Below are positions 688-47,305 of a stretch of 64,000 nucleotides of DNA, piece by piece. The notes beneath the pieces were generated by a model. It was not told the origin of the DNA and made no database searches. It worked only from the letters and a program-made list of their open reading frames with translations. Origin of the DNA: Gammaproteobacteria bacterium (GTDB lineage Bacteria; Pseudomonadota; Gammaproteobacteria; Eutrophobiales; Eutrophobiaceae); assembly GCA_965215365.1 (NCBI GenBank), contig CBDCDS010000003.1, positions 480,001-544,000 on the forward strand. The letters run 5' to 3'. The position numbers and the translations under genes are program-made. Every line of letters starts with the position of its first letter. The stretch's first letter is position 1.

Positions 688-1875
688 CTATTCAGGCTGC
701 GTCACCTGCTGCTCAATATACTTCATCAGCGAGGGGATGCCCGGAGTCCAGTTGCTCTCGTTATCGGGGTCGCCCTGCCAGATATAGCCGAGTTCATGCA
801 GTATTGTTTCAACCTCTTCCGGCGTCATCTCTGGCGGCAAATCGGCTTTGCGCAAAAGTTGTTCCAACTGGTGTTCAGAGAGTGATGAGTTGCCTGAGAA
901 GGCTGAGCCGAGAATCGTGGCAAGCGGAGCGAGCCGAGCTTCCTTGATCTCGTTGTAGCGGTCCCTGTAGAAATATTTTTTCCGGGTCTCGACTTCATTG
1001 TGTGCCAGCGCCGTTATGTGCTGGTCTATGCGCGTCCGACCGCGTTGTTTGAGCGCACCAAACAGCCTATCGCCCCATAACTGTACAAAATAAGGGTAGC
1101 CTTGCGTATCCCGCATAATGGCTTGCAGACAGTCTTCTTCACAGGTGATAGGGTATTTTTCCAGAGGCTTAATCAGGGCGTCTGCCGTATCCCGATACGA
1201 TAACAGGTTCGGGTAAAACCGCTCACTGCGCTCCCAGAAAGTGGCGCCCATGCGCTGCAACTGCTTTTGCAGCCCCGGCGTGCCGGCCAGGATAAGCAGA
1301 AAAGGCGCCGCCGCCCGTGTTTTCTGGCTTGCGTTCAGGAGCGTTCTACCGGTCTCAATATCCAGCGTGTGAGCCTCGTCAACGATGACAACCAACGGTT
1401 TTTTCATGCACCGGGCCGTTAATTCCTTAGCCACCAGATTGCGGAATTTTTGCTGCTGCGCGCCTCCCGCCTGCAACGTCAGACTCGCCTCACCGAGAGA
1501 CATTCCCAACGCTTCCGGGGAGACTGTTGCGTCTAGGGAGATTTGCAGGTCTTTTGCGAATTTCGTGCGCCAGTCATGCCTGACAAGCTGGTCCAGCAGT
1601 AACTCAGTAGTCGGAATTTCATCCGGCGTCAGCCAGAGCGTGTCGATAGTCCTTGCGTCGCCTTCCTTGATAAAGCGTTCAAACCAGCGCAGCAGCGCAG
1701 TTTTACCGTTGCCTCGGGGAGAGCAGACAATCACGTTGTTGCTGGGCGCGATTTTTTGTTGCAGGCGGGCCAAGCAAGTTTTCAGTACCCGTTGCTCCTG
1801 CTCCCGGCCCGTCAGCTCAGGGGGAATGATGCCGTCGCCGGGGTTGAAGGGGCTGAGTTGGTGTTGGAGAATCAT
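688..1875 (-). CDS. AAA+ P-loop ATPase (AAA_16-like) with probable C-terminal winged helix
   Basis: SPFNPG N-terminus, Walker A SPRGNGKT, Walker B VIVDEAH, TQGYPYFVQL motif. Confidence 0.75.
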   Translation of the reverse strand: MILQHQLSPFNPGDGIIPPELTGREQEQRVLKTCLARLQQKIAPSNNVIVCSPRGNGKTALLRWFERFIKEGDARTIDTLWLTPDEIPTTELLLDQLVRHDWRTKFAKDLQISLDATVSPEALGMSLGEASLTLQAGGAQQQKFRNLVAKELTARCMKKPLVVIVDEAHTLDIETGRTLLNASQKTRAAAPFLLILAGTPGLQKQLQRMGATFWERSERFYPNLLSYRDTADALIKPLEKYPITCEEDCLQAIMRDTQGYPYFVQLWGDRLFGALKQRGRTRIDQHITALAHNEVETRKKYFYRDRYNEIKEARLAPLATILGSAFSGNSSLSEHQLEQLLRKADLPPEMTPEEVETILHELGYIWQGDPDNESNWTPGIPSLMKYIEQQVTQPE

Positions 1876-1962: not shown

Positions 1963-2898
1963 TCATACAGGATTTGCCGGTTTGAAATTTCTATACTTGC
2001 CAGTTGTAATTCTCCGGCTTCTGTAAATTTCAACGATCCCTCTGGCTGAAAGATTTTCACGGTTCGGCTGAGGCCTTTGTAATTCATCAAGGCTAATTAG
2101 AGATGTTATAGCATCAATGCTCAACGGCGTTTTCCAGATTGGCCAAGTAAATAAAACACCTTTGTCTCGACTCTTTGAAAAGCCTGTCGTATGAAGTTTT
2201 TGTCCCATTGGCAGTGTGGGAAAAAAAGGCAGGGCTTCGATGGCAAGACGATTTGCGCCACGCATAGCTCGTATCGGGTCTCCTGCTGGCTCCTTCCAGC
2301 ACAGTGCGTACCTGCGATCATCAAATGGATCCCAGCGTAGGCTTGGCTTGGGGTCTAGATATTGCCAAGGTTCAAAAAGCGAAGACTGTAAATGTTCCGG
2401 TTCGGTATGTTCGACAAGTTTTCGCATAGAACCGATAAAATGTTGGTGTCCTGCCCCACTCATGGTCCGCAGGGCAGTATCCTGAATATTTTTGTCTCTT
2501 TGCGACACAGGCAGACTTTCACAGCCAAGGGCAGAAATAAAATCGGCGTACCGATGATCCGTAAAAATTGCCTTGTTCTGAGCATCATGGGTTATCCGGT
2601 AGAACTCCTCACAAGAGATTGTAAGATCATCATGCGGGAATAATTTGGCGGGATGTTTCTCTATAGCTCCTGACCCGAATGCGATCATCTGTATCAGTTT
2701 TTCCTCTGTAAGTGAAATATCCCCGGATATCACAGGAGACCAGCAACCTTGGTTCTGTTGCCAAAGCAGACGCCACTCACGTGGTGAATCCGTTTCACAT
2801 TCATTCACAACTCGCAATGTACCCAAAGCTGCAAGAAACGCCAACGGGTTGGCTCCATCGAGTCCGTTCAAAAGCAGTCCTGAACCTGCATCATTCAT
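1963..2898 (-). CDS. csb3: Type I-G (I-U) large subunit Csb3/Cas8g
   Basis: [44 protein letters not shown] motifs; start overlaps cas3 stop. Confidence 0.75.
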
Positions 2899-5800
2899 CG
2901 GCATCATTATGTGTCTCCTCCCATTCACTACGCCTCCAGTCTGCCAGTCGTAGCAAGGCTTCGAGCCATGCCAACCCCCACCAGCCGTAACGCCGCACCA
3001 TGCGCCAGTAACGATCCGCAATACCGGAGTCCAGACGTTCCAGACCAGTAGCTCCGCGCCATTGCAGGTGATGACCACGCAATTCAAAGCCAGCTTCTAC
3101 CTCCTGCTTATCAATGACAACCGGGGCGAAAGGGCGACAATATCCATGGTGGCTGGCAACCAAATGGAGAACCAAATCGCGTAACTCCTGATTTTCCGGC
3201 AGCAGTGTGGGGGCACTTTCTGCCATGCGCACGGAGAGTAGCTCATGGCGGCCGCCTATTGGATATTCGGAGTTTTTACGGGCATTTCTATCTCTGGACA
3301 TCCTCGCGGACTTGGCTAGTGGCTCGCCCGGCGGCAAGGAAGACCCACCATGCAACAACGATTGAAACCGGGGGTCTGCCTTGCCCACATCATGCAGCAA
3401 GCCAGCACAGGCAACGGCTTCAACCAGTTCACCGTCAAGGCCGCAAGCCATCGCGTGATGGCGGGCAAAACTTTCAACACCGGGGAGATGTGTACGGAGC
3501 CGTACAGGCTGGCCGTTTTTGTGCGAAATACCGGATGCGCTGACGTCATCCTCATCGCTGAAGCTATCAGCTTCGGAGGTGAGTTCAGGAATCAAGCGAC
3601 GGCCACGGATTACGATCTGATGGTCGCTAATAATATGGCAGGCCTGCTCCAGTTTTTGAGCTGGAAACTCCTCAATGAGTTCAGCGGCGACACTAGACAC
3701 CCAAGAGGGTTCCGGGGCATTGATAAGCACAGATAACAGCTCGCGCAATGCCTCGATTATTTCATCCGGGTCTTCATCATACCGCTGTTGCAGATTGTTC
3801 AGTAGTGAGCATGCGCTTTCTTTGATCTGATCGGAGACAGGCCAGTCGTTGACCAGTTCACGATGCAGCCGCAGAATGGGCTTTGCCCGGTTTAATCTGT
3901 AAGCCCTGTCTCCGACATCTGGGTTGGCGCCTTCGGGCAAGTCACCAAGCTGGTCCCGCGGGTGTGGGTGCCCAACCGGAATAACGATCACGTCTCCAGG
4001 GTGTATGTCTGCGGGGTCTGCCGTGATATGTTCCTGTTTTGTTTCGCGCCCGCGCCATCGGATTATATTGGCTCCATGAACTGGCGAGATTGCCTCTTCT
4101 ACGTAAGCGCCCGCCTGCGCTCCCTCCAGGTCAGCGCTATTATCCTCCTCGCCACTCCCGGCCAACCAGTGCTTAAAGACCTTGAACGGTACAGGCAATG
4201 ATTCGCTGCTGCTCGGCGGACATAGAACCAGTACATCAGTAGCCTCTTTTTGACCCGCGTCATCTGTTAAGTTAAGGTCAGCGCGCCAACACACTTGCAC
4301 ATCCGCTGCCCCCTCACGAGGCCCATGCAAGAACAAGGCAACGTCAGGTGATGGATTTGGTGCCGGAGAGGTCTGCGCCCAGCAATCAACATGGGCGGGC
4401 AGCATGACGGGAGCGTTCACGGACGGAGCATTCAACTCAGCCAAGGCGTCATCCGCCGGTAATTTTTTTTCAAGAAAAGCAATACCAAAATCGACGGTAT
4501 CGTTTTCATTCTTATTTTCCTGCAGCCATTGCCAGGTTTTGCTCAGGGCCGCGCCATATACAGGGTCACCCTCATTTTTTTTAGTTTCGGCTTGATCGGC
4601 TTGCACAAGTATCGCCGCCTTCGCTTCAATGTCTCTACCGGTGCGGTTCAAACGGCCAAAGCGCTGGCGCAGTGCGTCCAGGCTGGCACATTCGCTCACG
4701 AGACCGTCAAAGTCGAGGTCCGCGCCTACTTCAAGAGTTTGGGTAGCCACGACAATATAAGGTTCCGGCAATGCTCGTTGCGCGGATTGGTCAGACCGCA
4801 AAATCTCTAAATACTGCTGCACAACTTCTTTATCAACAGGACGCATACGACCTGTCAGCAGGGTCACGCATTCTTTGCGGTCCGGGCGACAGCATAGCAA
4901 TCGGGCGACTTCACGCGCGGTGGCTACTCTATTTACAAACACGACAACAGCGCGTCGTTCTTCATTGATCAATTCTATTGCTGCCTCAGTCAGAGCTTTG
5001 GCTAATTTCGTTATAGCCTGTGCCCTGCTGGCACCTTTAACCACGCCAAGTTTCGCAGGTTTGGAAGCTCTGTAACGACGCCCCAACGGATGTTCGGGAT
5101 CGCTTTTTTCCTCTGACAAATCTTCAAATACATCAGTAATCCCCGGGGGCGGAGTGGCGGACATGACGACAGGGTAGAAAGGCCGTGACAGGGGTTCATG
5201 CGCCCAGGTCTGATAGCGTTGTATTGCCTGTAATGTTTGCAAAAACGGACGGGCGCAATGGGCCTCGTCCAGCAGAATTAAACTGTCGTTAGCAACAAGC
5301 GCCGCGTAGATGGGGCAGATTTCCGAGCCTCTGCCATAAGCCCGGAACAACAAGCGGGAACCTACTTGATCAACGGTCGATGCAACTATCATGGGTTGCA
5401 GGGGGTTACGCGCCCATGCCTCTGATCGATACATCCCCCCGCGCAAAAGGTGAGCCTGCAAGGGTCTTTCTTTTTCAGCATCAAAGACTTGTCCGCTGGC
5501 AATAATTCGCAGGTTATCCGCTACACGTTTGAGTATCCCCTCTTTGGCCTGCTCCAGTTTTCCTGCTAGCCTTTGGGCGCGTGCGTATGCTTCATCGACG
5601 ATCACACGCCGGTCCACTACAAAGAATATCCGGCGCGGTGCGGTTAAAATCTGCTTGTTCACCATTCGTCCTGCCTGGCTTGCCAGTGAGAATAACGCTA
5701 TATCCATACAAGCCGTTTTACCGGATGCGGTTGGCAGTGCAATGGCGCCGGGCCAGGGCATCTCTGGAGTTTGTTTTTCAGAGGCGGGGGAATTAGGTTT

Positions 5801-5938
5801 GTCTTCCGCCCTTTCCGGCACATCTCCCAACACTCTGTTAGCCAGTTGTTGCTGCCAGGCGAACGGCGGCTTGTCCTCTCCCCAGAGGGCAGTAAAAAAT
5901 TCGGGGAAATCTGCCGGATTTAACTCTGCAGGGGACAT
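2891..5938 (-). CDS. cas3: Type I-G Cas3 helicase with C-terminal HD nuclease
   Basis: LPTASGKT, DEAH, SAT, QRFGRLNR helicase motifs; C-terminal LLHDVGKAD, RHE, SHHG, RLAD HD motifs (helicase-then-HD order typical of I-G). Confidence 0.92.
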   Translation of the reverse strand: MSPAELNPADFPEFFTALWGEDKPPFAWQQQLANRVLGDVPERAEDKPNSPASEKQTPEMPWPGAIALPTASGKTACMDIALFSLASQAGRMVNKQILTAPRRIFFVVDRRVIVDEAYARAQRLAGKLEQAKEGILKRVADNLRIIASGQVFDAEKERPLQAHLLRGGMYRSEAWARNPLQPMIVASTVDQVGSRLLFRAYGRGSEICPIYAALVANDSLILLDEAHCARPFLQTLQAIQRYQTWAHEPLSRPFYPVVMSATPPPGITDVFEDLSEEKSDPEHPLGRRYRASKPAKLGVVKGASRAQAITKLAKALTEAAIELINEERRAVVVFVNRVATAREVARLLCCRPDRKECVTLLTGRMRPVDKEVVQQYLEILRSDQSAQRALPEPYIVVATQTLEVGADLDFDGLVSECASLDALRQRFGRLNRTGRDIEAKAAILVQADQAETKKNEGDPVYGAALSKTWQWLQENKNENDTVDFGIAFLEKKLPADDALAELNAPSVNAPVMLPAHVDCWAQTSPAPNPSPDVALFLHGPREGAADVQVCWRADLNLTDDAGQKEATDVLVLCPPSSSESLPVPFKVFKHWLAGSGEEDNSADLEGAQAGAYVEEAISPVHGANIIRWRGRETKQEHITADPADIHPGDVIVIPVGHPHPRDQLGDLPEGANPDVGDRAYRLNRAKPILRLHRELVNDWPVSDQIKESACSLLNNLQQRYDEDPDEIIEALRELLSVLINAPEPSWVSSVAAELIEEFPAQKLEQACHIISDHQIVIRGRRLIPELTSEADSFSDEDDVSASGISHKNGQPVRLRTHLPGVESFARHHAMACGLDGELVEAVACAGLLHDVGKADPRFQSLLHGGSSLPPGEPLAKSARMSRDRNARKNSEYPIGGRHELLSVRMAESAPTLLPENQELRDLVLHLVASHHGYCRPFAPVVIDKQEVEAGFELRGHHLQWRGATGLERLDSGIADRYWRMVRRYGWWGLAWLEALLRLADWRRSEWEETHNDADE

Positions 5939-5948
5939 TCGCGGGTTG

Positions 5949-8324
5949 TTAATCCATGGGACGACACAGCCCGTATCCCTTGAACCGTCCGGCCCCGATA
6001 ATCACCGGCCCGTTCACGGGTTCGTCAAATACGATGAGCGCATGGCTATGGCTTTGTTTCCCATTATCTTTTTTACGAATCAACTTCGGATAGTCCCTGG
6101 CGTGGGGGACGCCCTCTACCATAGAAACGGAAGACAGCACTACTTCACGAGGCTCCAGCAATCCTGTATGTCTGCAAGCGTCTTTTACGCTGTCCGCTGC
6201 CTGTTCCCATTTATCTTTCCCATCAAAATGTCTGTTCAGGGCTACCGGCGTTACGCTTGCCCAGACTCGAGAGGGCCTAGTCCAGGTGCGCGCACGAAGA
6301 TTCTGCGGCGGGCGCTCTCGGGTTTCCAGTTCGAGGCTGCACTCAAACCATTGGCCGTCAAATAGGGTATGTTGGCGCGGCAGACCTGTAGCAGGGTCAT
6401 ACAGAAAAGTCTCAAGAGAGTGTCTGGCTGCTTGCGGGTCCAGGTTTACGGGCAAGACCAAGCCCAAACCCATAATTCGTCCTTCCGCGTGTTCGGCACC
6501 AACAAAAGGCAGTGGAATCAGTGCAGTGTGCGGCGTCTTAGAAGGTGATCCGTCTGTGCGATGACCACTGAACCACTCCGGTGGTGGCTGGTCAGAGCAA
6601 CAGACCATGAGCAGGCCGCGCAGGGCCATGGTAAGTTTAAGAGTTGCCGGTAGTGAGACGCGTTTGCCTCTTATGCTCAAGACGATAAAGCGAGGATCGA
6701 AGACGGAACCCTGCGTTATTGTGGATGATGGCTCACCCTGAGATTTGCTGTAACCCTGCCAGCGCCCCGGTCCGGGACGCTGTGTTACAGGCCGTTGCCC
6801 GCTGGGGAATCGTTCTTGCAAACGGTTCTCAAGCTGTTTTATGTGCTGTTTTTGCTCGCGAGGGCTTCGCCCACCACTTGCGCCATTTCCTGTTTGCTTT
6901 GCTGCAGCAATTCGATTTCGTATGGTGTCAATATCCGGGGAGCGACTGAGGTACCGAGCCTCCGATTGAGTAAGGCAGTCGAAGGCATGGCCGAAGTGCT
7001 CTCGCCACCATTTTTCAAGGATTGATCCGTGTCGTTGTTTAAGTTCATGTAATTGCTCCTGTGAAGGCGTTAATACAGCGGAGTAAGGCTTGCCGGTAAG
7101 TGCTACAGCGCCTATAACTTTTCCGCCCTTTTTCTCAACCCAACCACGCAAATTTGCCAGTGTTCCGCCTTGGCCTATGAAGTCATCCACCATGATATAT
7201 TCACATGCATGGTTGAGTTCACCAGTAAAGTTGGCCTGACGGCTAAGACGTCCATAACCATCTGCGCCTGTGTGTGATACCACATTTGCTTGTACCACAT
7301 TTGCTTCGTATTCTACTCCGAGTCTCTCACTTAGCAATCTTGCCAGGGCGATTGGAATCGCATTGATGCCCTCTCGTTCACGGGAATGCGCACTGACCAG
7401 CACTGGCTTGCCGTTATTACAGAATTCTGAAACCAGCATTTCTACTGATGCAATGCCATTATCATCAACCAAGTCGTTGACAAGATTAGTTGCAGCAACG
7501 GCATCTCCTGTTTTGGCATCGTGATACTCCGGGTGCTGCTTGGTTTGAGACTCGCCAGCTAATATGACTACGTCCGGAAAATCTCCCCAGGCGACCCTGG
7601 GCGGATGCTTCATAGACTTAAGGTCTGCTTTTGCTCGCGCTATTTCATTATCCAGATCATGGTAGGCAAACCATTCACTCTGGTTGCATGACTGAGCAAG
7701 TTGGGCGAGTCTGCCCTCGAAGGGAACGCGTAATCGGCGTTCGGCAATTTTATCGGTCGGTATCCAATGTGCCCTTATCTCAGCATCATTTTCCAGCCAC
7801 ACTTGTGTAAAAGAGGCGGAGTGTCCTATGTGAGTGACTTTTGCAGCTAGTTGCTTTAATGCCGCGTAATTTGAGAGCAACGACTCCGTATCGTTCCAGA
7901 TAAGGCGCACTGTGGGGTCTTGAGGGATAGCCACCGGAAAGCCACGAGGTTGTCGCGGCCTGTATTCCGGCAACAGAACCAGACCATCTTCCTTGAGTTT
8001 CTCCACAAATTCCTTTGGGGACAGCTTTTTCAAGCTGCTGGAGGCCGTTACTGTTTTTTTGCGTTCCCGGTCGTTAACCGGTACGTAACTGACTACATTG
8101 GAGCGGGTTGTATAATCCGAGGCGGCAATGGCAGGCGGAGGCAAACTTTCCAACCAACGCAGAGCCTCACCCTCAGCCGGGTCTTCACCGGTTTCGAACC
8201 AAGCTGCCGCCAATGCCATGAATACCCGGTCTGGATGTGGTGGCCACTCGGCCTGCTCTTTGCTGGCGCCATCGGCAGCAGCCATCGACCACCCGTTAAG
8301 GTAGTGGATGCCAAGGGCGAACAT
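5949..8324 (-). CDS. csb2: Type I-G Csb2 (Cas5-Cas6 fusion) with internal PRTase domain insertion
   Basis: N-terminal EWPPHPDRVFMALAA and YVPVND; C-terminal WASVTP and GPVIIGAGRFKGYGLCRP G-loop; central MVDDFIGQGGTL PRPP-binding loop. Confidence 0.88.
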   Translation of the reverse strand: MFALGIHYLNGWSMAAADGASKEQAEWPPHPDRVFMALAAAWFETGEDPAEGEALRWLESLPPPAIAASDYTTRSNVVSYVPVNDRERKKTVTASSSLKKLSPKEFVEKLKEDGLVLLPEYRPRQPRGFPVAIPQDPTVRLIWNDTESLLSNYAALKQLAAKVTHIGHSASFTQVWLENDAEIRAHWIPTDKIAERRLRVPFEGRLAQLAQSCNQSEWFAYHDLDNEIARAKADLKSMKHPPRVAWGDFPDVVILAGESQTKQHPEYHDAKTGDAVAATNLVNDLVDDNGIASVEMLVSEFCNNGKPVLVSAHSREREGINAIPIALARLLSERLGVEYEANVVQANVVSHTGADGYGRLSRQANFTGELNHACEYIMVDDFIGQGGTLANLRGWVEKKGGKVIGAVALTGKPYSAVLTPSQEQLHELKQRHGSILEKWWREHFGHAFDCLTQSEARYLSRSPDIDTIRNRIAAAKQTGNGASGGRSPREQKQHIKQLENRLQERFPSGQRPVTQRPGPGRWQGYSKSQGEPSSTITQGSVFDPRFIVLSIRGKRVSLPATLKLTMALRGLLMVCCSDQPPPEWFSGHRTDGSPSKTPHTALIPLPFVGAEHAEGRIMGLGLVLPVNLDPQAARHSLETFLYDPATGLPRQHTLFDGQWFECSLELETRERPPQNLRARTWTRPSRVWASVTPVALNRHFDGKDKWEQAADSVKDACRHTGLLEPREVVLSSVSMVEGVPHARDYPKLIRKKDNGKQSHSHALIVFDEPVNGPVIIGAGRFKGYGLCRPMD
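6839..7048 (-). CDS. Putative nested small ORF (69 aa) in an alternative frame within the csb2 PRTase insert
   Basis: AGGAG 7 nt upstream of ATG 7048; helical C-terminus ILTPYEIELLQQSKQEMAQVV. Confidence 0.4.
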   Translation of the reverse strand: MNLNNDTDQSLKNGGESTSAMPSTALLNRRLGTSVAPRILTPYEIELLQQSKQEMAQVVGEALASKNST

Positions 8325-8329
8325 GAGGT

Positions 8330-9550
8330 TTAGTCGGTTCCCTGAGCGCTTGCCAGCTTCTGACTACGCCGAACCAGTTCTACCAGCTCAGATGCCGGTG
8401 TCAATTCGATTTCTCCCTCCCATGGGAGACCAGCAGCTTTAGCTTCGACAATAGCCGCCTGCAGAAGATTAAGAGCGTCATCCGTGCCCAATTCATATTC
8501 TTGGGGAGTTTCTCCCGGACGATCGAGCAATTCCCAAACTGGCCCTTGTTCTGCAAATAACTGGCAGCGGGAACGAAGGTCAGTATCGACCCGCGCTAAA
8601 CTGCCTGCAGCCAGACCTAAGGCAGCCAAGGTAGTGCGGGCTGCCAAGTTTATCCCATGGCTGGAGTCCGCCGCATCGTTAACGGGAAAGCGCAGGCGGC
8701 GCAAGACCGCCAAGGATAAGGTCGTTGTCTGTTTTGCTTTTGTTATGGTAAATCCACCTCCATCGTCAGAAATGCTTGGGCGGATATTTCCGTGGTTTAC
8801 TTCTGATGGCTTTCCATCTTTACCTAGCTTTTTGGGCTTGGATTTTTCGGTTTTGCCAGCCCCATCTTCCAGAGTCCAATGCGGGGCATCGGTTACCGCA
8901 ATTCCTCGCGGGTACAGTGGCCCTGCGTCAAGCCGGATTTGAGCCGGGTCAAGACGACTGGATGTTTTCTTTCCCGAAATGGCATCATACCCCACAATTT
9001 CAGATACGATCGCCCTCTGAAATTTACATCCGAGCCCGCCGCGTGGCCCTGTCGAATCCCACAGCCCGAACACCAGAGCAGTAGGACAAAGTCCGAATAA
9101 ACCGGTGGCATCGCGTATATCCGCCGTGTCAAGCAGCCTGCCCCTATCTGACTTGCGAAAAATGGTGCCGTCCAGAAGGCTGTCGCGAAATAACGCGTCC
9201 GCTATGCGATGCGGCGCTTCGAGGCTGGTAACTGTGAATTTCTTGTCCAAATCCGGGTCAACAAAACGGGCAATCAGCAATGGAAGCTTTACTTTGCCGG
9301 TGCGATGAGCCTCAAGCAGGGCCAACTCCATACGGTTAGCCTGCGATTGCACTGAATCCAGCAGCACGCACTTTTTAACCTCCCCGGTTTCCGGGTCGAT
9401 ACGTTCTTCGGTTGCGTACTTTCCGCCCTCATAAGTCGGCGGAAAAACCTTGTCGCCCACACCCCCCGCGGGTTGATAGTCAGTTACACAACGAAATGCT
9501 GCAGCGTTTCCACTTACTGCCCCTTTCAAAGTTTCCAAGGTGATTTTCAC
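8330..9550 (-). CDS. csb1: Type I-G Cas7 (Csb1)
   Basis: GDKVFPPTY, VLLDSVQSQANRME, PHRIADA, PTALVFGLWDS motifs. Confidence 0.92.
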   Translation of the reverse strand: MKITLETLKGAVSGNAAAFRCVTDYQPAGGVGDKVFPPTYEGGKYATEERIDPETGEVKKCVLLDSVQSQANRMELALLEAHRTGKVKLPLLIARFVDPDLDKKFTVTSLEAPHRIADALFRDSLLDGTIFRKSDRGRLLDTADIRDATGLFGLCPTALVFGLWDSTGPRGGLGCKFQRAIVSEIVGYDAISGKKTSSRLDPAQIRLDAGPLYPRGIAVTDAPHWTLEDGAGKTEKSKPKKLGKDGKPSEVNHGNIRPSISDDGGGFTITKAKQTTTLSLAVLRRLRFPVNDAADSSHGINLAARTTLAALGLAAGSLARVDTDLRSRCQLFAEQGPVWELLDRPGETPQEYELGTDDALNLLQAAIVEAKAAGLPWEGEIELTPASELVELVRRSQKLASAQGTD

Positions 9551-38523: not shown

Positions 38524-39153
38524 TCAAGAAAGAGCTGGCCTTGTGGAAGAAAAATCTCGCGGCACAAACCCCTCCTCATTAACGATACTGGCACTGTCGC
38601 CGGTGGCGCGGATGGCAAACAAGCCCTGGCGGATGACATTCCGTTGCACGCTCTCATCGGCCTTGAGATACGCCATGGCGCCATGAATGACCTTGCCCTT
38701 GTAGTCCGGGAAACAGGTGGTAAATTCCGTCAGGTCTTCAAGGAAGTCCTTGACCCCCTCCGGGTGCAGCGTGGTTTTGACTTCCACGACCACCACCTGT
38801 TCACCGTTAATCGCCAAGATGTCGTACTCATAGTTTTTGCCGTCATTGAGACGATTGATACGACCGAGGCGGCGGCTTTTGGTCTTTTGCACAGGGATGC
38901 CCCGGTCTTGCAGCATGGCGACCAAGTCGCCTTCCACCAGGCTTTCCATGAACGCCCCCCACTGGTTATCGAACGTGCCTTGCAACTGCTTCATGCGCCG
39001 GTCGGTATGCTTCATCTCCTGGTAAGTTTCCTTCATCTGCCGGTCAGTCTCCTTCATGCGCCGGTCAGTTTCCTTCTGTGCCTCGGCCAATTCCTGCAAG
39101 CTGGCCCAGACCGTTTCAAACGTAGCGGGTTTACGCGGCAATTGTTTTTCCAT
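38524..39153 (-). CDS. Coiled-coil PD-(D/E)XK protein, paralogue 1 (DUF3782-like)
   Basis: KETDRRM heptads then WG...E, EYDIL, VVVEVK motif. Confidence 0.75.
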   Translation of the reverse strand: MEKQLPRKPATFETVWASLQELAEAQKETDRRMKETDRQMKETYQEMKHTDRRMKQLQGTFDNQWGAFMESLVEGDLVAMLQDRGIPVQKTKSRRLGRINRLNDGKNYEYDILAINGEQVVVVEVKTTLHPEGVKDFLEDLTEFTTCFPDYKGKVIHGAMAYLKADESVQRNVIRQGLFAIRATGDSASIVNEEGFVPRDFSSTRPALS

Positions 39154-39263
39154 GACAGATTCCTCCTTATCGGTTTGGTTGATAGTTAACAGCAGCAGCC
39201 GGCCATGGACAGCCGGCTCGTAACAATACTAATGTACACGGGGTGAAAAAGCAAAGGGAAACT
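39154..39263 (-). promoter_or_regulatory. Repeated leader/promoter of the coiled-coil paralogues
   Basis: Near-identical at 46246-46355, 47180-47272, 48191-48296; TTGCTT-N17-TAGTAT, hairpin AGCCGGC-N8-GCCGGCT, AGGAGG RBS. Confidence 0.7.
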
Positions 39264-39460
39264 TCATTTTAGTCTCTTACGCCGCATCGATGAAATCCAG
39301 ACTTTTGAATGCCGGGGTCCCATTATCTTAAGACGATACCAGAAGGGTAAAAACCCGTTTCCTGCGTTTGGCGGATATTGTTATAATTCGGTACCATGCA
39401 ACTTCAATTCCGGTGTGGGAAACAAGGTGCGAATAGTCTTGCCTTCCACCTGCGCATGAT

Positions 39461-41458
39461 ATGAGTATTATTCTTCCAATCAATATAGAAGACCTGCTGC
39501 ACTGTCAGGGCGTAGAGTCTTCCCGCATTGAATTCAAGGCAGGCTGGGATGACGAAACAACGGGTGTTCAGGTTTTGAAAACGATATGCGCGTTTGCCAA
39601 TGACCTGCAAAACCTGAATGGCGGGTATATCATCATCGGCGTTGAGGAACGTGAGGGCCGCGCAGTTCTTCCTCCCAAGGGCATAGCACCGGGAAAAATA
39701 GATTACATACAGAAATGGATCAGAGGCAATTCAAATCGTATTGACCCGGAATTTCAGCCGGTGATGTCGCTGGAAGTTGTGTCGGGTAAGCATATCCTGA
39801 TTATCCGGGTGCCAGGGAGTAATGTACGGCCCCACAGAGCGCCGGAAGCTAACAGGGGAGGGGAAAGAAAATACTTTGTGCGCATTGGTTCCGAAACAGT
39901 GGATGCGGATAAAAATGGCGTCCTTGATGAGCTGATGCAGCTTACCGCCAAAGTACCCTTCGACGACCGTAGAGCGCTTCAGGCAACCACAGATGACCTG
40001 CGAGAAAGCAGGGTCAGGGAGTTTCTCAACGATATCCGCAGCGGTCTGTTGGAAGAGGAGAATACGAGAGAAATTTACCGAAAACTCCGCATTACTTCAT
40101 CTGCGAATGGCCATGATGTCCCCAAGAATATAGGCCTGCTGCTGTTCAGTGAAGACCCGGATATCTGGTTCCCGGGCACGCGTATTGAGGTCGTTCAATT
40201 TGCCGGTGATGCGTCGGGAAACATCATAGAGGAAAAAATATTTCGCGGTGGCATACATGAACAATTAAAAAATGCCTTGACTTTCCTGGAAACCATTTCC
40301 AGTCCGCACCTGGAGAAACAGGAACGTTCTTTCAGAGTGAAAGGGTGGGTCAGTTATCCGGTCCAGGCTCTGCGCGAGGCGCTTGTGAATGCCGTTTATC
40401 ATAAAAGCTATGAGCCATCGCTACAGGAGCCGGTCAAAGTCTATTTGTATCCGGGCCGTATGGAAATTACCAGTTACCCGGGACCGGTACACGGCATAGA
40501 ACCTGCACACTTTCATCCGAATTCTTCGGTGCCTTCTGCACCTGCCAGGAACAGGCGCATAGGTGAGTTTCTGAAGGAACTGCGTCTTGCTGAAGGCCGC
40601 GGCACAGGGTTGCCAAGAATTTACCGGGCAATGCAGGAAAACGGATCGCAGGCTCCCTCGTTCGACTTCGACCAGGGGAGAAGCTACTTTCGGGTAACGC
40701 TTCCCGCACACCCGGAATATATCGCCATTTCCGCCCTGAGAGATGCCGCCCACCTCAAGGCTCTGGGCAATGATGCCGATGCCTTCAGGCGCATCGAAAA
40801 TGCGTGGAAATCCCTTCCTGCTTCACCTTCGCTCACTGCGGAATACATCCGCCTGCTTGGCGCAAATGAACAACTTGAGGCCGCGCAAACAGCATTCTCG
40901 GAATTTAAGCAACAGGCGCCGGACAACTTTCACCATTTTGTTTCCAATGTCCTGATAGATATCCTGTTGGATGCCGGGCGCAAAGATGAGGCAAAAAAAT
41001 TGCTGGATCGCCAGCCCGCGTATCTGGCGAGTGCCGATGCCATGGACGCGGCCATCCTCGCTCGGCGGCTCCGCAACGAGGAAAAAGCCCACCGCTACTT
41101 TGAACGCGCCGGCGATGTCGTATTCAACGACATTCGCGCATTACACGAATTTGCTCAAGCAAAAATCAAACTGGCGCAGAAAACACCGAGAAACCGCCAA
41201 GGGCGTCAGCCATACTTGCGCCTGTTACGCGAAGCAAAAGAGTTGCTGGAACGTGCTGTGCAGATGGATGCCGGCCGAGTGCGTCATGCTTGGGCGTGGA
41301 GAGATTTAGGCAGGGTTAAAAAATGGCTGAAACATCCCACACACGAGGTAACCGCCGCTTACGAACACGCAATAGAACTGCATCCGGAAGAAAAGGAATT
41401 CAAGACAGAACTGGCCTTGTGGAAGAAAAATCCCGCGGCACAAACCTCGCATCATTAA
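39461..41458 (+). CDS. Schlafen/AlbA_2 + HATPase_c_4 (RecG-like C-term) protein with helical TPR-like tail
   Basis: ESSRIEFK, ICAFAND...GGYIIIGV, REALVNAV.H, RNRRIGEFL, EGRGTG. Confidence 0.82.
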   Translation: MSIILPINIEDLLHCQGVESSRIEFKAGWDDETTGVQVLKTICAFANDLQNLNGGYIIIGVEEREGRAVLPPKGIAPGKIDYIQKWIRGNSNRIDPEFQPVMSLEVVSGKHILIIRVPGSNVRPHRAPEANRGGERKYFVRIGSETVDADKNGVLDELMQLTAKVPFDDRRALQATTDDLRESRVREFLNDIRSGLLEEENTREIYRKLRITSSANGHDVPKNIGLLLFSEDPDIWFPGTRIEVVQFAGDASGNIIEEKIFRGGIHEQLKNALTFLETISSPHLEKQERSFRVKGWVSYPVQALREALVNAVYHKSYEPSLQEPVKVYLYPGRMEITSYPGPVHGIEPAHFHPNSSVPSAPARNRRIGEFLKELRLAEGRGTGLPRIYRAMQENGSQAPSFDFDQGRSYFRVTLPAHPEYIAISALRDAAHLKALGNDADAFRRIENAWKSLPASPSLTAEYIRLLGANEQLEAAQTAFSEFKQQAPDNFHHFVSNVLIDILLDAGRKDEAKKLLDRQPAYLASADAMDAAILARRLRNEEKAHRYFERAGDVVFNDIRALHEFAQAKIKLAQKTPRNRQGRQPYLRLLREAKELLERAVQMDAGRVRHAWAWRDLGRVKKWLKHPTHEVTAAYEHAIELHPEEKEFKTELALWKKNPAAQTSHH

Positions 41459-41918
41459 CGATGCCGATAGCGTCGTCTGTGGCGTGGATGACAAACAACC
41501 CTTGCTGTTCCGCATGTGCCTGTATGACCTCGTCCACGTTGAGGTACGCCACTGCCCCGTGGATCTTCTTTCCAACGAAGGGTGTCGCATGGGGCGGGAA
41601 CTTCTCCATGCTCTCAATAAAGAGTGCCAATAGCTCGGCGCACGAATCGAAGAACAGTTGTGTTACCACCACTTCTTTGTCGCCATAGGCTATGGGGTCA
41701 TCGTATCCAAAACTGACCCCGCCGGATGAACCGTGCATGCCACCTATGCCTCTAGGCAGAAACATGCCACGGGTAGCCATCAAAGCCTCGAGGTCTCCTT
41801 CCCTCAGGCTTTCTCTCAACAGATCTATCTCGGCCGGATAATTACATATTCTCCGCTCGTAATAGGTTGGTTTCACCCCCAAATCACTCGTCTTGAAATG
41901 TCTCTCAATTTTTTTCAT
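41400..41918 (-). CDS. Divergent/degenerate paralogue of the coiled-coil PD-(D/E)XK gene
   Basis: Shares ESL.EGDL, GKKIHGAVAYL, QGLFVI.AT but lacks heptads and the EVK motif. Confidence 0.5.
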   Translation of the reverse strand: MKKIERHFKTSDLGVKPTYYERRICNYPAEIDLLRESLREGDLEALMATRGMFLPRGIGGMHGSSGGVSFGYDDPIAYGDKEVVVTQLFFDSCAELLALFIESMEKFPPHATPFVGKKIHGAVAYLNVDEVIQAHAEQQGLFVIHATDDAIGIVNDARFVPRDFSSTRPVLS

Positions 41919-42023
41919 ACACTATTCCTCCCACTGGCGCTTAACAACACCAAAATTAACGCATATGCAATAGAAGGTAAAGAAAAATTTGCATACTTAA
42001 AAATTCCCCGGTAAGTTGTAATC

Positions 42024-43178
42024 ATGGAAGCGCAGCAGCCAAATATCCCTGTTGACGAGCAGGATGTTGAAGGTTTGGACACCCAAGGCGGCTCTTGGGG
42101 GGATTACCCCATTGATGCGCTCTTGATCCGGCATGAAACACGAACTGTCTTCGATGTTATACGGCGGATCGACAAAGGCAGTTACGTCATGGACCCTGAC
42201 TTCCAGCGAGATTTCATCTGGCCTGAGGATAAGCAAAGCAAACTCATCGAATCTGTGCTTATGCGGATTCCTCTGCCGGTCTTCTACTTGGCGGAGGACG
42301 GGGAAGGGCGTATGATAGTCGTAGATGGCCTGCAACGTCTGGCGACATTCAGGAACTTCACATCCGACGGTCTGAGACTACGCCTCCCGGACCGCCCCGA
42401 CCTGAATGGCAAAAAGTTCACCGACCTAGAGCCCAAATTCCAAAATCGCATCGAAGACTGTAACCTGATTTTTTACATCATTGATTCCAAAGCCCCTGAA
42501 CGCGCGCGCTTGGATATCTTTGATAGGGTCAACAGCGGTGTGCCGCTCAAGCCACAACAGATGCGCAACAGTTTGTTCATGGGGCCCGCAACTCTTTTTC
42601 TCAAAAATGAGGCAAAAACCGATATATTCCTGAAGGCGACAGGCGGGAGCCTGAATACAAAAACCATGCGCGACCGGGAATTTGTCAACCGCTTCTGTGC
42701 TTTCCAGCTATTGGGACCGGATAAGTACCGTGGCGATATGGATGTCTTTCTTGCGCGCTGCCTGCGCTACATGAACAGCATAAGTGAAACCGATTTGGCC
42801 CGGTTATCCACAGAATTGCGCAGGAGCCTTGCCAATAACTATTTGTTATTCAGACTACGAGCTTTCAGAAAGCACCCTTCGGAATTGCTTTGGCGAAGAG
42901 GCGTGCTCAACGCGTCGCTCTGGGACGTTATGTCCACCGGCCTGTCCCGTTACCCGGAAGCAAGCGTAAGCACTCATGCGAAACGCTTGAAGGAGGCTGT
43001 TCGTGATCTGTCTAAAGATGAGCGATTCAATGACGCAATCTCCATTGGCACAAACGATACCAGAAGGGTGAAGACCCGGTTCGATATGACGCGTGAAATT
43101 CTCGAGGATATTCTCGGTCCCCAAACAACCGGTTTTGCAACCGACCTGGTCGCTGATTCAGATTCAAATTTTTCTTAA
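42024..43178 (+). CDS. DUF262 (ParB-like) protein, Menshen NsnA-like
   Basis: PDFQRDFIW, KLIES..MRIPLP.FY, VDGLQRL, IFDRVNSG..L. Confidence 0.82.
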   Translation: MEAQQPNIPVDEQDVEGLDTQGGSWGDYPIDALLIRHETRTVFDVIRRIDKGSYVMDPDFQRDFIWPEDKQSKLIESVLMRIPLPVFYLAEDGEGRMIVVDGLQRLATFRNFTSDGLRLRLPDRPDLNGKKFTDLEPKFQNRIEDCNLIFYIIDSKAPERARLDIFDRVNSGVPLKPQQMRNSLFMGPATLFLKNEAKTDIFLKATGGSLNTKTMRDREFVNRFCAFQLLGPDKYRGDMDVFLARCLRYMNSISETDLARLSTELRRSLANNYLLFRLRAFRKHPSELLWRRGVLNASLWDVMSTGLSRYPEASVSTHAKRLKEAVRDLSKDERFNDAISIGTNDTRRVKTRFDMTREILEDILGPQTTGFATDLVADSDSNFS

Positions 43179-43189
43179 GGAGGTTAAAC

Positions 43190-44347
43190 ATGCTTACAGG
43201 GATAGACCTGAAACATTTCAAATGCTTCAAGTTATTGAAGCTGCCGTTAACCCCCCTGACCTTGCTTACCGGCGCCAACGCCTCTGGCAAGTCATCGATC
43301 ATCCAGGCCTTGGCACTGCTGCATCAGACCATGCGGGGACATGAGTGGTCCAAGCGTCTAATGCTCAATGGCGACACAGTAAGGCTTGGCGCCGTAGTCG
43401 ATGTAATAGACAAGGTTTACGGACGCAACTCCTGCGCTCTTGCCCTGCTGGATCGCGCAGCATATTGCAGGTGGGAATTTGCCGGGGAGCGGCACGCTAT
43501 GTCGATGGCAGTAAAATATGTCGGTGTCAGTGGCGTCGAAGTCATTGAAGAACCGGAGCCAGAAATGCTGCACCACCTGTTGCCTGAGACGGCGCGTCAA
43601 TATACTCACGGGTTAATCGAGAGTCTGCTCGGGCTTACTTATCTCACTGCAGAGAGGTTGGGCCCGCGTGAATATTATCCGCTAGAAGACTTCCAACTTG
43701 CGCCTGTTGTCGGACCAAGAGGTGAGTATGCCGTGAGCGCGCTCTATTCTGGTGGTGATGAACACGTTCTTGATGAGTTAGTGGTCGAGGAGCAACCGCC
43801 GACGCGGTTGCGTCAGACAGTAGCAAGAATGAACCATTTCTTCCCAGGTTGTGATTTAATGATAAACAAGGTTCCAAACGCCAATGCTGTAACGTTAGGA
43901 CTTCGCACCTCCGGTGATGCGGATTTCCATCGGCCTGTTCATACGGGATTCGGGTTGACCCAAGTACTCCCGATTATTGTAGCGGCCCTGTCCGCAGGGA
44001 AGGATAATTTGCTGTTAATCGAGAACCCAGAAGTACACCTCCACCCCGCAGGACAAGCAATGATGGGTGAATTTCTGGCCGAAGTAGCCGCGGCCGGCGC
44101 GCAGGTCATTCTGGAAACCCATAGCGACCATATATTGAATGGGGTCAGAAAAGCAGTGAGGAAGAAAAAATTATCCCCCGACGCCGTTGCCCTGCATTTT
44201 TTCCTGCCGCGCCAGGAGTGTGAAGAAAAAGGCGCTGCACAGGTACAAAGTCCGGTTATGGACACAGATGGAAATATCGATACTTGGCCGGATGGTTTTT
44301 TTGACCAGTTCGACAAGGACATGAACTACTTCGCTGGGTGGGGTTGA
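43190..44347 (+). CDS. ABC-type ATPase with DUF3696, Menshen NsnB-like
   Basis: GANASGKS, GFGLTQVLP, IENPEVHLHP, ETHSDH, WPDGFFDQ. Confidence 0.85.
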   Translation: MLTGIDLKHFKCFKLLKLPLTPLTLLTGANASGKSSIIQALALLHQTMRGHEWSKRLMLNGDTVRLGAVVDVIDKVYGRNSCALALLDRAAYCRWEFAGERHAMSMAVKYVGVSGVEVIEEPEPEMLHHLLPETARQYTHGLIESLLGLTYLTAERLGPREYYPLEDFQLAPVVGPRGEYAVSALYSGGDEHVLDELVVEEQPPTRLRQTVARMNHFFPGCDLMINKVPNANAVTLGLRTSGDADFHRPVHTGFGLTQVLPIIVAALSAGKDNLLLIENPEVHLHPAGQAMMGEFLAEVAAAGAQVILETHSDHILNGVRKAVRKKKLSPDAVALHFFLPRQECEEKGAAQVQSPVMDTDGNIDTWPDGFFDQFDKDMNYFAGWG

Positions 44348-44348
44348 C

Positions 44349-45311
44349 ATGGAGCTGTTCGCAAATGATCTTTCAATTCACCGACAATTTCGTGACATAT
44401 CATCGTTTCGTAAATCGTTGCAGGGACTTATGGATATGCGTGCCACTGCGAAGCGTTTCAGCCGGGAGGTATATTGCCATCGGGCGTTCTTGAATGCTGA
44501 GCCATTGCCTGGAGTGCCGATGCAACAAGCCTTGGGGCAACTTCGCGAAAGCGAACGGCGAGCCACGATCAATTGGCTGACGCGTGGTGGTCCCTTTTGG
44601 GATGATTATCGTCTCCACAGCGGCGACGACTGGTTGGAATGCCGAGGGGAAGTGGTAACTGACTCAGCCATAGGAGAAGCAGCGTATCGCAAACTTCACA
44701 ATGATGCTGAGAGTGGTTTGGTCAGCGTAACCCCATCCAAATGGAATTCCTCTCCCGTGGAAGTAATTTGGAGGCGGGAGGGCGAGGGGTTCGAAGACCA
44801 AAACACAGCACTCGAAAATTGGTGGGATGTCACTGCACTGGAAAACAATTTGCAGAATGCCCCGCTACCGATCAGGTCGTGGGATGATTTGCAATCGGCC
44901 TCAATCAGCCGCTTTCAAAGGCTGACTTTTGCTGGCGATTGCTTTGAGCCACTTTCCGGAGTTCCGTTCGCGAAGAGTTCGATGGAACGCATACTTGAAC
45001 TTTTCAAGACACTAAATCGCTATGCAAGCGCCTTTGATGCGGCTGGCAAACGCACCCCCGAAGGTCAACAGACTTACCAGAACTTCTTCACAGGGGGCGA
45101 GAACGCGTTGTTTTCCGATTCGACTGATCGAGAGAAAAGGGATTTTCGTAATGAGTTGACCTTCAAGCATCCGGACGACCCTGAAAAATCCTTGTTTTGT
45201 CCGTGGCATGGCAAGGAACGCCACAAAGTTTTGCGGTTACATTTTTCCTGGCCCATCCGGTTCCGTGAACCGGTTTATGTTGTATATGTCGGTCCGAAAA
45301 TTACCAGATAG
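44349..45311 (+). CDS. Third operon gene, putative effector (Menshen NsnC-like)
   Basis: Starts 1 nt after ATPase stop; C-terminal FSDST...F..WHGK...RLHF..YVGP pattern. Confidence 0.62.
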   Translation: MELFANDLSIHRQFRDISSFRKSLQGLMDMRATAKRFSREVYCHRAFLNAEPLPGVPMQQALGQLRESERRATINWLTRGGPFWDDYRLHSGDDWLECRGEVVTDSAIGEAAYRKLHNDAESGLVSVTPSKWNSSPVEVIWRREGEGFEDQNTALENWWDVTALENNLQNAPLPIRSWDDLQSASISRFQRLTFAGDCFEPLSGVPFAKSSMERILELFKTLNRYASAFDAAGKRTPEGQQTYQNFFTGGENALFSDSTDREKRDFRNELTFKHPDDPEKSLFCPWHGKERHKVLRLHFSWPIRFREPVYVVYVGPKITR

Positions 45312-45349
45312 TAAGACAGGCATGCTCCCCTCCATCGAAATAAGGAAAA

Positions 45350-45540
45350 GATTCGCGCGGGTAATTCCAACATTCGCAATCCGATTCTTGTTTCCTATGT
45401 AGCCAAGGGCCTGCTCCCGTATCACGGCCTTGGTTCCGGTATCAAACGCGCCCTAGAAGCATGGCCGCATATCGATTTCACGGATGACCGGGACGCTTGC
45501 CTGTTTACCGTAACCGTTCACCGCAAACAGGCAGCACTCA
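45350..45540 (+). pseudogene. C-terminal remnant of another HATPase_c_4/RecG-like gene
   Basis: Manual translation EKIRAGNSNIRNPILVSYVAKGLLPYHGLGSGIKRALEAWPHIDF; no start. Confidence 0.6.
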
Positions 45541-46245
45541 CCCAAACACCCGCGGCACAAACCCCTCCTCATTAACGATACTGGCGCTGTCGCCGGTGGC
45601 GCGGATGGCAAACAAGCCCTGGCGGATGACATTCCGTTGCACGCTCTCATCGGCCTTGAGATACGCCATGGCACCATGAATGACCTTGCCCTTGTAGTCC
45701 GGGAAACAGGTGGTAAATTCCGTCAGGTCTTCAAGGAAGTCCTTGACCCCCTCCGGGTGCAGCGTGGTTTTGACTTCCACGACCACCACCTGTTCACCGT
45801 TAATCGCCAAGATGTCGTACTCATAGTTTTTGCCGTCATTGAGACGATTGATACGACCGAGGCGGCGGCTTTTGGTCTTTTGCACAGGGATGCCCCGGTC
45901 TTGCAGCATGGCGACCAAGTCGCCTTCCACCAGGCTTTCCATGAACGCCCCCCACTGGTTATCGAACGTGCCTTGCAACTGCTTCATGCGCCGGTCGGTA
46001 TATTTCATCTCCTGGTAAGTTTCCTGCATCAGTTGCTCAGTCTCCTTCATGCGCCGATCGGCTTCCCGGGCATTTTCCTTCATGCGCCGATCGGCTTCCC
46101 GGGCATTCTCTTTTATAAGCCGCTCAGTTTCCCGGGCATTCTCTTTTATAAGCCGCTCAGTCTCCTTCTGCATCTCGGCCAATTCCTGCAAGCTGGCCCA
46201 GACCGTTTCAAACGTAGCGGGTTTACGCGGTAATTGTTTTTCCAT
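45538..46245 (-). CDS. Coiled-coil PD-(D/E)XK protein, paralogue 2
   Basis: Same N-terminus and nuclease-like domain as paralogue 1; 11-aa KENARE repeats. Confidence 0.75.
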   Translation of the reverse strand: MEKQLPRKPATFETVWASLQELAEMQKETERLIKENARETERLIKENAREADRRMKENAREADRRMKETEQLMQETYQEMKYTDRRMKQLQGTFDNQWGAFMESLVEGDLVAMLQDRGIPVQKTKSRRLGRINRLNDGKNYEYDILAINGEQVVVVEVKTTLHPEGVKDFLEDLTEFTTCFPDYKGKVIHGAMAYLKADESVQRNVIRQGLFAIRATGDSASIVNEEGFVPRVFG

Positions 46246-46504
46246 GACAGATTCCTCCTTATCGGTTTGGTTGATAGTTAACAGCAGCAGCCGGCCATGG
46301 ACAGCCGGCTCGTAACAATACTAATGTACACGGGGTGAAAAAGCAAAGGGAAACTCCAGAGTCCGAAAGTCCTGCTGTTCCGCCTCTCAATAAAGTGCGT
46401 TTCGACGTTGTATAAGCATATCAAGCACCAATAAGAAGTCAGGCCGTTGCTTACTTGATTGCGCGCCCTGCTGCGCCGGATCAACGTTAACGGCTGCGTA
46501 ATGC

Positions 46505-47179: not shown

Positions 47180-47305
47180 GACAGATTCCTCCTTATCGAA
47201 TTTGGTTGATAGTTAACAGCAGCAGCCGGCCATGGACAGCCGGCTCGTAACAATACTAATGTACACGGGGTGGCGAGGTAAAGAGGAAATTTACAAATAC
47301 AGCGC

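Follow-up and report, generated by a model that had tools for sequence, protein, structure and literature searches.

Within the window studied here, a 64,000-nucleotide (nt) stretch of a gammaproteobacterial genome (assembly GCA_965215365.1, contig CBDCDS010000003.1, positions 480,001 to 544,000), the type I-G gene csb2 carries an insert resembling phosphoribosyltransferases (PRTases), and the 3' end of this insert contains a second, 69-codon open reading frame (ORF) on the same strand. Based on the comparison of homologous sequences, this nested ORF is very probably a real coding gene under selection, overprinted in the +1 frame on the PRTase domain. The favoured explanation of the whole arrangement, to which a probability of about 0.5 is given, is that the domain and the small gene form a dual-coding cassette in which the peptide binds the PRTase and serves as its safety catch. 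Translation of the nested ORF, inhibition by its peptide and toxicity of the PRTase are presumed in this explanation.

The nested ORF lies in frame +1 of csb2 and spans Csb2 residues 426-495, which form the 3' end of the insert. Its start region reads cAGGAGcaattacATG 5' to 3' on the minus strand, its TAA stop is located at 6841-6839, and its translation holds the C-terminus RILTPYEIELLQQSKQEMAQVVGEAL. A first-pass annotation, made from the letters of the DNA alone, had described a Shine-Dalgarno (SD) motif AGGAG, a 7-nt spacer, an ATG and an ORF of 69 codons, all of which are present and were located on the minus strand. The same annotation had the ORF overlapping the 3' end of the PRTase segment and stopping near the downstream junction of the insert; homology with solo PRTases indeed ends there, and the nested stop falls within a few codons of that end. 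The nested ORF stands far above chance because of the comparison with homologues, namely their open frame, start codon, SD motif and synonymous constraint.

Homologous loci were collected from same-genus genomes (a match in 6 of 61), GTDB genomes (22 loci), metagenomes (80 loci kept of 447 relatives) and viral contigs (11 loci), and the sample spans csb2 fusions, solo genes and phage MuF or polyvalent-protein fusions. The site of the nested ORF is covered in 114 of 115 loci, L121 being without a match over it; dereplication, in which loci of less than 90% nucleotide identity were kept, removed 39 of the 114 and left 75, and L006-L011 were dropped as duplicates or fragments. One locus with a disrupted main frame (L110) was kept in the 75-locus stop test and left out of the 74-sequence analyses of entropy, codon identity, SD motifs and six frames, and the peptide alignment omits L095, L110 and two incomplete ORFs. 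The expected number of stops was obtained from 300 synonymous-codon shuffles per gene, in which the protein and the codon usage were preserved. Against this expectation, the +1 frame of the overlap contains 1 stop instead of 82.5 and is open in 74 of the 75 homologues instead of 18.9, and the sole stop, in L043, is that ORF's own end; summed across the open sequences, the log10 probability amounts to -50.6. As controls in the same genes, the upstream 150-160 codons contain 517 stops in the +1 frame (456.7 expected), and the overlap itself contains 193 stops in the +2 frame (187.9 expected). Furthermore, a six-frame control with 74 sequences gave 0 stops in the +1 frame against 82 expected, and 49, 137 and 125 in the antisense frames against 55, 85.8 and 94.7. 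Stop depletion is confined to the sense +1 frame of the overlap, and the other frames and regions are not depleted.

The start codon of the small ORF is found in two configurations. Group A (29 sequences) comprises all csb2 fusions, the one in the window included, and some solo genes; the codon at site 1, for H, D, N or Y, has the form xAT and is followed by GAx in 29 of 29 sequences, against a background share of T-ending codons of about 0.5. Group B (45 sequences) comprises most solo genes and the phage fusions, has a +1 TGA two codons past site 1, and places the ATG six codons downstream of site 1 in 45 of 45 sequences, by means of His CAT (43) or TAT (2). The background share of CAT among His codons is 0.50, and group A uses CAC at the position of the group B ATG in 20 of 27 sequences. 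The Arg that precedes the ATG in group B is encoded by AGG or AGA in 35 of 43 cases (background 0.21), and this AGR codon yields TGAGG, in which a +1 stop runs into an SD motif, 7-8 nt before the ATG. Taking the homologues together, a GGAG, GAGG or AGGA core is found at positions -16 to -4 of the start in 50 of 74 sequences compared with 0.084 of background windows in the same genes, and the purine-rich motif is retained despite differing main-frame residues (QEQ, EEQ, EGQ, KEQ, GEQ). In addition, the Leu of an invariant xLTxSE motif is encoded by CTT (62) or CTC (12); the four Leu codons that create a +1 stop are never used there, against a share of 0.70 among Leu codons elsewhere in these genes. 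The first-pass annotation had proposed asking whether homologous PRTase genes conserve the frame and its SD motif or have stops there; the frame proved open, with a start and an SD-like motif kept.

Dual-frame constraint, another check proposed at that stage, appears as a collapse of synonymous variation over the overlap only. Codon identity in synonymous pairs is 0.349 upstream of the overlap, where pooled usage predicts 0.325 (ratio 1.07), and 0.685 within it (ratio 1.96, and up to 2.47 in the last windows). The entropy of third codon positions decreases from 1.72 bits upstream to 0.74 bits in the distal overlap, where it equals the entropy of first positions and several third positions are invariant. 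Among 18 full-length csb2-PRTase genes, residues 426-495 show a ratio of 2.02, and the ratio stays at 1.29 in the Cas5-like part, 1.27 in the PRTase before the ORF, 1.32 in the linker past the nested stop and 1.32 in the Cas6-like part. In a sliding window the ratio reaches 1.55-2.67 over Csb2 residues of about 434-495, windows elsewhere along the 791 codons giving 1.1-1.7, so that the peak matches the borders of the nested ORF and drops right after its stop. An open alternative frame, a conserved start with a ribosome-binding motif and a confined synonymous suppression, the marks of an overlapping gene, are all found.

The insert of approximately 250 residues sits between the Cas5-like and Cas6-like halves of Csb2, at the linker point. 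It is homologous to stand-alone proteins of approximately 248 amino acids (aa), which are named phosphoribosyltransferase by their sources, and likewise to the domain at the C-terminus of phage MuF and polyvalent proteins. At E<=1e-3 it has 1239 matching proteins, with identities of 56-73% among the 120 matches listed. Across the homologues D114, D115 and GQGGT are invariant, and the copy in the window retains 49 of 49 invariant columns, among them those of the DD pair and of the GQGGT loop for phosphoribosyl pyrophosphate (PRPP). Solved PRTases are matched weakly but consistently in both sequence and fold: the PDB profile matches lead to APRT (E about 1e-3) over the PRPP loop, and the Foldseek matches listed are type I PRTases, PRPP synthetase, ComF and PRTase-related proteins (E 1e-3 to 1e-2). 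The insert also matches phrog_22413 (E 1.3e-57), and MuF, LPD22 and Pribosyltran domains are found in its relatives, Pfam Pribosyltran in one relative and below the cut-off. A PRPP loop with an acidic DD pair and the accompanying fold, which characterize type I PRTases, are found in the insert. PRTases of polyvalent proteins, both as MuF fusions and in solo forms, were described by Iyer et al. (2017, PMC5512222), and the present family is this group, with the same MuF fusions, polyvalent proteins, solo genes on phages and conjugative elements and catalytic DD motif. A conserved Arg following strand 2, in common with ComFC, is a further feature that the paper names for the group. The part of that paper covered here makes no mention of a Csb2 fusion or of a nested gene, and the words 'overlapping', 'frameshift' and 'immunity protein' occur 0 times in its main text. 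As a separate observation, 8 of the 120 listed PRTase relatives (P0016, P0019, P0024, P0040, P0053, P0073, P0077 and P0089) are 456-475 aa long and contain PF09609; from their sequences they look like the Cas5-like half of Csb2 joined to the PRTase and end near the stop of solo PRTases; a Csb2 divided downstream of the insert may exist in some genomes.

The small ORF, with a length of 56-78 codons, accompanies the PRTase domain in every architecture sampled, and in most loci with solo genes it extends 4-73 nt beyond the PRTase stop. The two genes are adjacent and co-inherited, as in toxin-antitoxin or immunity pairs, the overlap being given by construction. The first-pass annotation had suggested that a whole cassette was captured, a PRTase toxin with an overlapping antitoxin as a possible addiction or safety module; this reading is partly supported, and the csb2 insert does contain the small ORF together with its stop. 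Solo genes adjoin N6/N4 DNA methylases (L046, L053, L072, L079) and occur near ParB (L053) and a polyvalent-type kinase, Kinase-PolyVal (L095). In one locus (L031:2902-6458), a solo PRTase of 257 aa with the nested ORF is followed after 2 nt by a Cas3-like helicase of 922 aa, and no Csb2 fusion is found within the stretch seen. On viral contigs, the PRTase forms the C-terminal domain of two MuF fusions, with the small ORF present (L118, L119), and of an LPD22/GNAT polyvalent protein (L111). Plasmids (169 records) and phages (3 records) also carry the domain; one plasmid copy, from Acinetobacter (42.5% identity), has an unannotated 59-codon ORF after TGAGGG, and in Moraxella phage Mcat8 the +1 frame is open, with only a 39-aa tail annotated in GenBank. 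One phage frame stays open over 105 codons. Based on these occurrences as solo genes, MuF or polyvalent fusions and plasmid genes, the cassette is a widespread module of mobile elements and is not special to csb2. The Mcat8 gene itself (L127, KR093632.1, 18224-19963) encodes 579 aa, follows the portal gene, has the PRTase at its C-terminus and is annotated as 'coat protein', and its sequence and position suggest a MuF-type head protein fusion. In the same genus as the window, a solo PRTase (L005, G006:C1) is flanked by two ORFs of approximately 400 aa with similar C-termini, which may be transposases and would then fit a mobile cassette.

The peptide alone gave 3 matches in an exact-word homologue search, and a profile of 71 peptides reached much further, matching 720 cluster representatives at E<=1e-3, of which 194 also pass E<=1e-10; most of the representatives are 55-100 aa long. 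Among 20 representatives fetched, three are PRTases reading through into the +1 peptide (P0132, P0206, P0236) and three have long C-terminal extensions, for which no Pfam match was found. One more of the 20, P0165, a predicted protein of 182 aa, begins with an MqsA antitoxin domain (1-130; Pfam E 6.5e-14), to which the peptide module is joined; a search of the viral contigs for P0165 and for the long-tailed P0254 returned no relative. A protein Atlas search with the peptide gave only 'hypothetical protein' clusters of 64-71 aa. AlphaFold2, supplied with a 71-row alignment, predicts a disordered N-terminus, a short helix at 22-31 and a long helix at 42-68, with a mean predicted local distance difference test (pLDDT) score of 73.6 and about 90 in the long helix, in agreement with the C-terminal amphipathic helix that had been read from the sequence at the outset. 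The host-frame residues over the same DNA are also modelled as confident helices, and both frames are therefore predicted to encode structure. Modelling of the complex, likewise suggested by the first-pass annotation, predicts that the peptide binds the PRTase domain: the interaction prediction score from aligned errors (ipSAE) was 0.73, 0.75 and 0.73, compared with 0.00 for the best of 3 controls, with a contact agreement of at least 87% between runs and a partner pLDDT of at least 66. Of 80 solved complexes, 58 attained this ipSAE mark, as did 2 of 110 mismatched pairs. In the model, residues 20-66 of the peptide contact the N-terminal lobe of the PRTase (residues 7-17, 45-67, 73-84 and 95-102), a part with the invariant E50, N55, V78, Q79 and N81 that lies outside the overlap. 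Judged from these models, binding of the PRTase domain by the peptide is somewhat probable.

In the favoured explanation, the PRTase domain and the small gene would constitute one dual-coding cassette with the overprint on the last ~70 codons of the domain, and type I-G Csb2 would have received this cassette in its entirety, in the linker between its Cas5 and Cas6 parts. Ribosomes would initiate internally at an SD motif and an ATG written in synonymous positions of the host frame, and the product of 56-78 aa would bind the N-terminal lobe of the PRTase by its helical part. The peptide could then silence the enzyme, whether inside the cell that makes it or on a Cascade at rest, for as long as the partner persists. 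In Csb2, the enzyme-peptide pair would ride on Cascade, and its release by target binding or by peptide turnover is speculation. The PRTase is found in a context of conflict, with MuF and LPD22/GNAT fusions and with DNA methylases, ParB and Kinase-PolyVal as neighbours, and according to Iyer et al. (PMC5512222, as far as that paper was covered) the enzyme in MuF and polyvalent fusions is presumably passed on to another cell. A cognate inhibitor, antitoxin or immunity-like, is favoured over a cofactor because a separate polypeptide that stays behind suits an inhibitor of an enzyme sent elsewhere, because PRTase effectors with a counteracting protein exist (ShosTA) and because of the single MqsA fusion; this assignment is tentative, at slightly less than even odds. 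A bolder extension holds that the PRTase domain carries its own inhibitor's gene in a second frame, so that shuffling moves effector and safety catch jointly, including into Cascade, where the PRTase borne by Csb2 would be kept inactive by the peptide and freed once a target is recognized or the labile peptide disappears; this extension is regarded as improbable.

A number of observations weigh against these readings, and several of them lend themselves to other explanations. Within the window alone, the SD motif with its ATG and the length of the ORF are within chance: AGGAG-N5-9-ATG occurs 12 times against 8.15 expected, 16 of 100 shuffles reach 12, and 69 ORFs of at least 60 aa are listed in the first 16 kb. 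Across the homologues, a clear SD core near the first ATG is absent in 24 of 74, the ATG lies elsewhere in one sequence (L095), and p-values such as that of the Mann-Whitney comparison of overlap and upstream columns (8.6e-19; 74 PRTase genes) are overstated because the homologues are related, an effect argued to be small since the near-random wobble positions upstream indicate sequences close to independent. The ORF could have arisen by chance from base composition and a conserved host protein, the overlap offering only ~6-10 possible +1-stop sites and a single sequence staying open with a probability of 0.03-0.68. Chance is nevertheless the least probable account of all, as the frame is open in nearly every homologue, the codon choices at the start, the SD motif and the at-risk Leu are far from background, the constraint peak coincides with the ORF borders, and the homologues are not near-identical at the DNA level; a chance ORF was rejected on the stop depletion, these codon choices and the restriction of the signal to the +1 frame. 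Synonymous suppression alone does not identify the selected feature, and the open frame might be a side effect of constraint on an RNA structure, a regulatory or recombination site or an antisense gene, but this is hardly more credible than chance. The overlap region has no Rfam match at E<=1, and RNAalifold on 30 of the 74 sequences gave no consensus structure (-0.01 kcal/mol, 3 pairs, 0 compensatory changes); on these two results an RNA element was rejected. An antisense gene was rejected in the absence of stop depletion in the antisense frames, which are at or above expectation, and the selected codons are exactly those that make the ATG and the SD motif and avoid a stop. Programmed ribosomal frameshifting into the +1 frame, yielding an alternative PRTase C-terminus, is very unlikely as well. 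It could explain the three fetched representatives in which a PRTase N-terminus runs into the +1 peptide, but these are equally explained by indels or assembly errors, and no slippery site or 0-frame stop is shared by the homologues. Most database matches are free proteins, the ATG is conserved throughout both start groups with an SD-like motif upstream, and entry from upstream is blocked in group B because the +1 TGA precedes the ATG.

The inhibitory role faces further difficulties. The peptide has no match in Pfam, NCBIfam, PADLOC or PHROG, no family match in a PDB profile search (best E 0.73) and nothing at E<=1e-3 in Foldseek, and it is without an antitoxin-type DNA-binding domain. The PRTase matches none of the PADLOC defence and toxin models, those of ShosT and the retron effectors included, at E<=0.01. 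For neither partner was a known family of toxins or antitoxins found in the Pfam, NCBIfam, PADLOC, PHROG and PDB searches. The role of the PRTase in polyvalent proteins was called 'enigmatic' in the covered part of Iyer et al. 2017 (PMC5512222), and the MqsA fusion is a single prediction. The calibration of the ipSAE mark holds only roughly for a complex modelled on custom alignments. Obligate co-occurrence suits a required cofactor equally well as an inhibitor, and the peptide could be a positive partner of the PRTase: a required subunit, a folding or assembly chaperone or a specificity factor. Its presence with the domain in every context (74/75), the predicted binding, the missing match of the PRTase to any PADLOC defence or toxin model and a modelled interface that omits the DD/PRPP loop 114-122 are all consistent with such a partner. 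In contrast, a non-covalent activator would need to travel with the delivered enzyme, which a stay-behind inhibitor would not, and the fusion to an MqsA antitoxin domain points, weakly, the other way. A cofactor is the less likely of the two roles on this evidence but a serious rival, far ahead of chance, non-coding constraint or frameshifting.

Embedded genes with interacting products and toxin-immunity pairs are both known kinds of arrangement. In the lambda spanin genes Rz and Rz1, a small +1-frame gene lies within a larger gene on the same strand, the products bind each other, and Rz1 is a lysis lipoprotein. The pair described here has no sequence or fold relation to Rz/Rz1; its host frame encodes an enzyme domain, and the pair moves as a domain-sized cassette, including into a Cascade subunit. 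In Bacillus subtilis, comS encodes a short regulatory peptide out of frame within srfA from its own internal start, but ComS acts on MecA/ClpCP and not on the protein of its host gene and is lineage-restricted, whereas the nested ORF is kept across phyla, phages and plasmids. In MuF polymorphic toxins, a MuF N-terminal domain is followed by a variable C-terminal effector and then by a small cognate immunity gene downstream. The two MuF fusions on viral contigs (L118, L119) have the same succession of MuF, PRTase and small ORF, but the small ORF is overprinted on the last ~55-70 codons of the domain and is inseparable from it for that reason. Cas11 arises from an internal translation start within cas8 in the same frame as Cas8, whereas the nested ORF is in another frame and arrived with the insert. 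In the phage-defence system ShosTA, a PRTase-fold toxin is combined with a counteracting protein, ShosA, described as a separate DNA-binding protein that acts indirectly, in the manner of type IV (PMC11961720, in the part covered); the partner in the present case is an overlapping ORF of 69 aa that is modelled to bind directly. In the literature searched, which excluded supplements such as File S2 of Iyer et al., no paper turned up in which a PRTase is linked to Csb2 or type I-G, or in which an overlapping ORF is described for the present PRTase domain.

What is new is a partner overprinted on an enzyme domain, with both moving as one cassette, including into a Cascade subunit. The nested ORF provides a strongly supported, phylum-spanning case of a same-strand overlapping gene in bacteria, phages and plasmids that standard annotation has missed, and for the 'enigmatic' PRTase of polyvalent proteins it supplies a predicted partner, and hence a starting point for experiments. 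It also offers a route by which an effector and its partner could be captured jointly by a cas gene, and it draws attention to a type I-G variant with an enzyme on its Cascade. If a peptide-held PRTase is indeed present in Cascade, a metabolic or abortive-infection arm would be added to a Cas3-based system.

The host gene and its surroundings belong to a type I-G locus (Table 1). The 791-aa ORF scores 294 bits against the Csb2 equivalog model TIGR02165 (cut-off 45), and the PADLOC Cas56g models match it in two stretches, 1-266 and 500-790, in keeping with a layout of Cas5-like N-terminal domain, insert and Cas6-like C-terminal domain. The studied type I-G Csb2 of Shangguan et al. (bioRxiv 10.1101/2022.08.08.503147, in the part covered) also consists of a Cas5-like and a Cas6-like domain with a linker near residue 260, and the neighbours Cas7g, Cas8g and Cas3g are alike; that Csb2 is without an insert, whereas the linker in the window bears the ~250-aa PRTase domain and the nested gene.

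Table 1. Positions of the nested gene, its host insert and the type I-G genes in the window
Feature	Position	Strand	Basis or detail
Shine-Dalgarno-like AGGAG	7056..7060	-	from main-frame codons Q-E (CAG GAG)
Spacer, 7 nt	7049..7055	-	between AGGAG and ATG
ATG start of nested ORF	7046..7048	-	main-frame CAT GAA (His426-Glu427)
Nested +1-frame ORF, 69 codons + TAA	6839..7048	-	ORF list, translation
Strongest synonymous-site suppression, Csb2 residues about 434-495	6840..7025	-	sliding window
PRTase-like insert in Csb2, about residues 241-495	6840..7604	-	homology to stand-alone PRTases
csb2, type I-G host gene, 791 aa	5949..8324	-	TIGR02165 E 2.8e-87; PF09609
csb1/cas7g, same operon, upstream of csb2	8330..9550	-	PF09617, TIGR02570
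cas3g, downstream of csb2	2891..5938	-	TIGR02621 E 6.5e-210
cas8g / Cas3-adjacent I-G protein	1963..3087	-	NF049934 match from residue 73; PADLOC Cas8g

The cas8g ORF as listed overlaps cas3g by about 197 nt; its TTG start is probably placed too far upstream and the ORF over-extended, because the NCBIfam match begins only at residue 73. No array of clustered regularly interspaced short palindromic repeats (CRISPR) was found within the window, and a Cas1-containing ORF of 573 aa lies immediately beyond its edge. Directly downstream of cas8g in the I-G operon, an AAA_16/AAA_22 ATPase of 395 aa (688-1875, minus strand), whose only PADLOC match is a weak one to TRIP13, may be an accessory gene of the operon. 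Elsewhere in the window, minus-strand ORFs at 38976-48138 contain, in several paralogous stretches, 21-nt tandem repeats (families D1-D3, up to 17 copies), and the start context AGGAGGAATCTGTCATG occurs four times on the minus strand, at 39151, 46243, 47177 and 48188; these ORFs look like a small gene family with 7-residue repeats. An identical 17-mer, AGGAGGACTACCCGATG, is found at 17296 (+), 49329 (-) and 54172 (+), which suggests a multi-copy element such as an insertion sequence.

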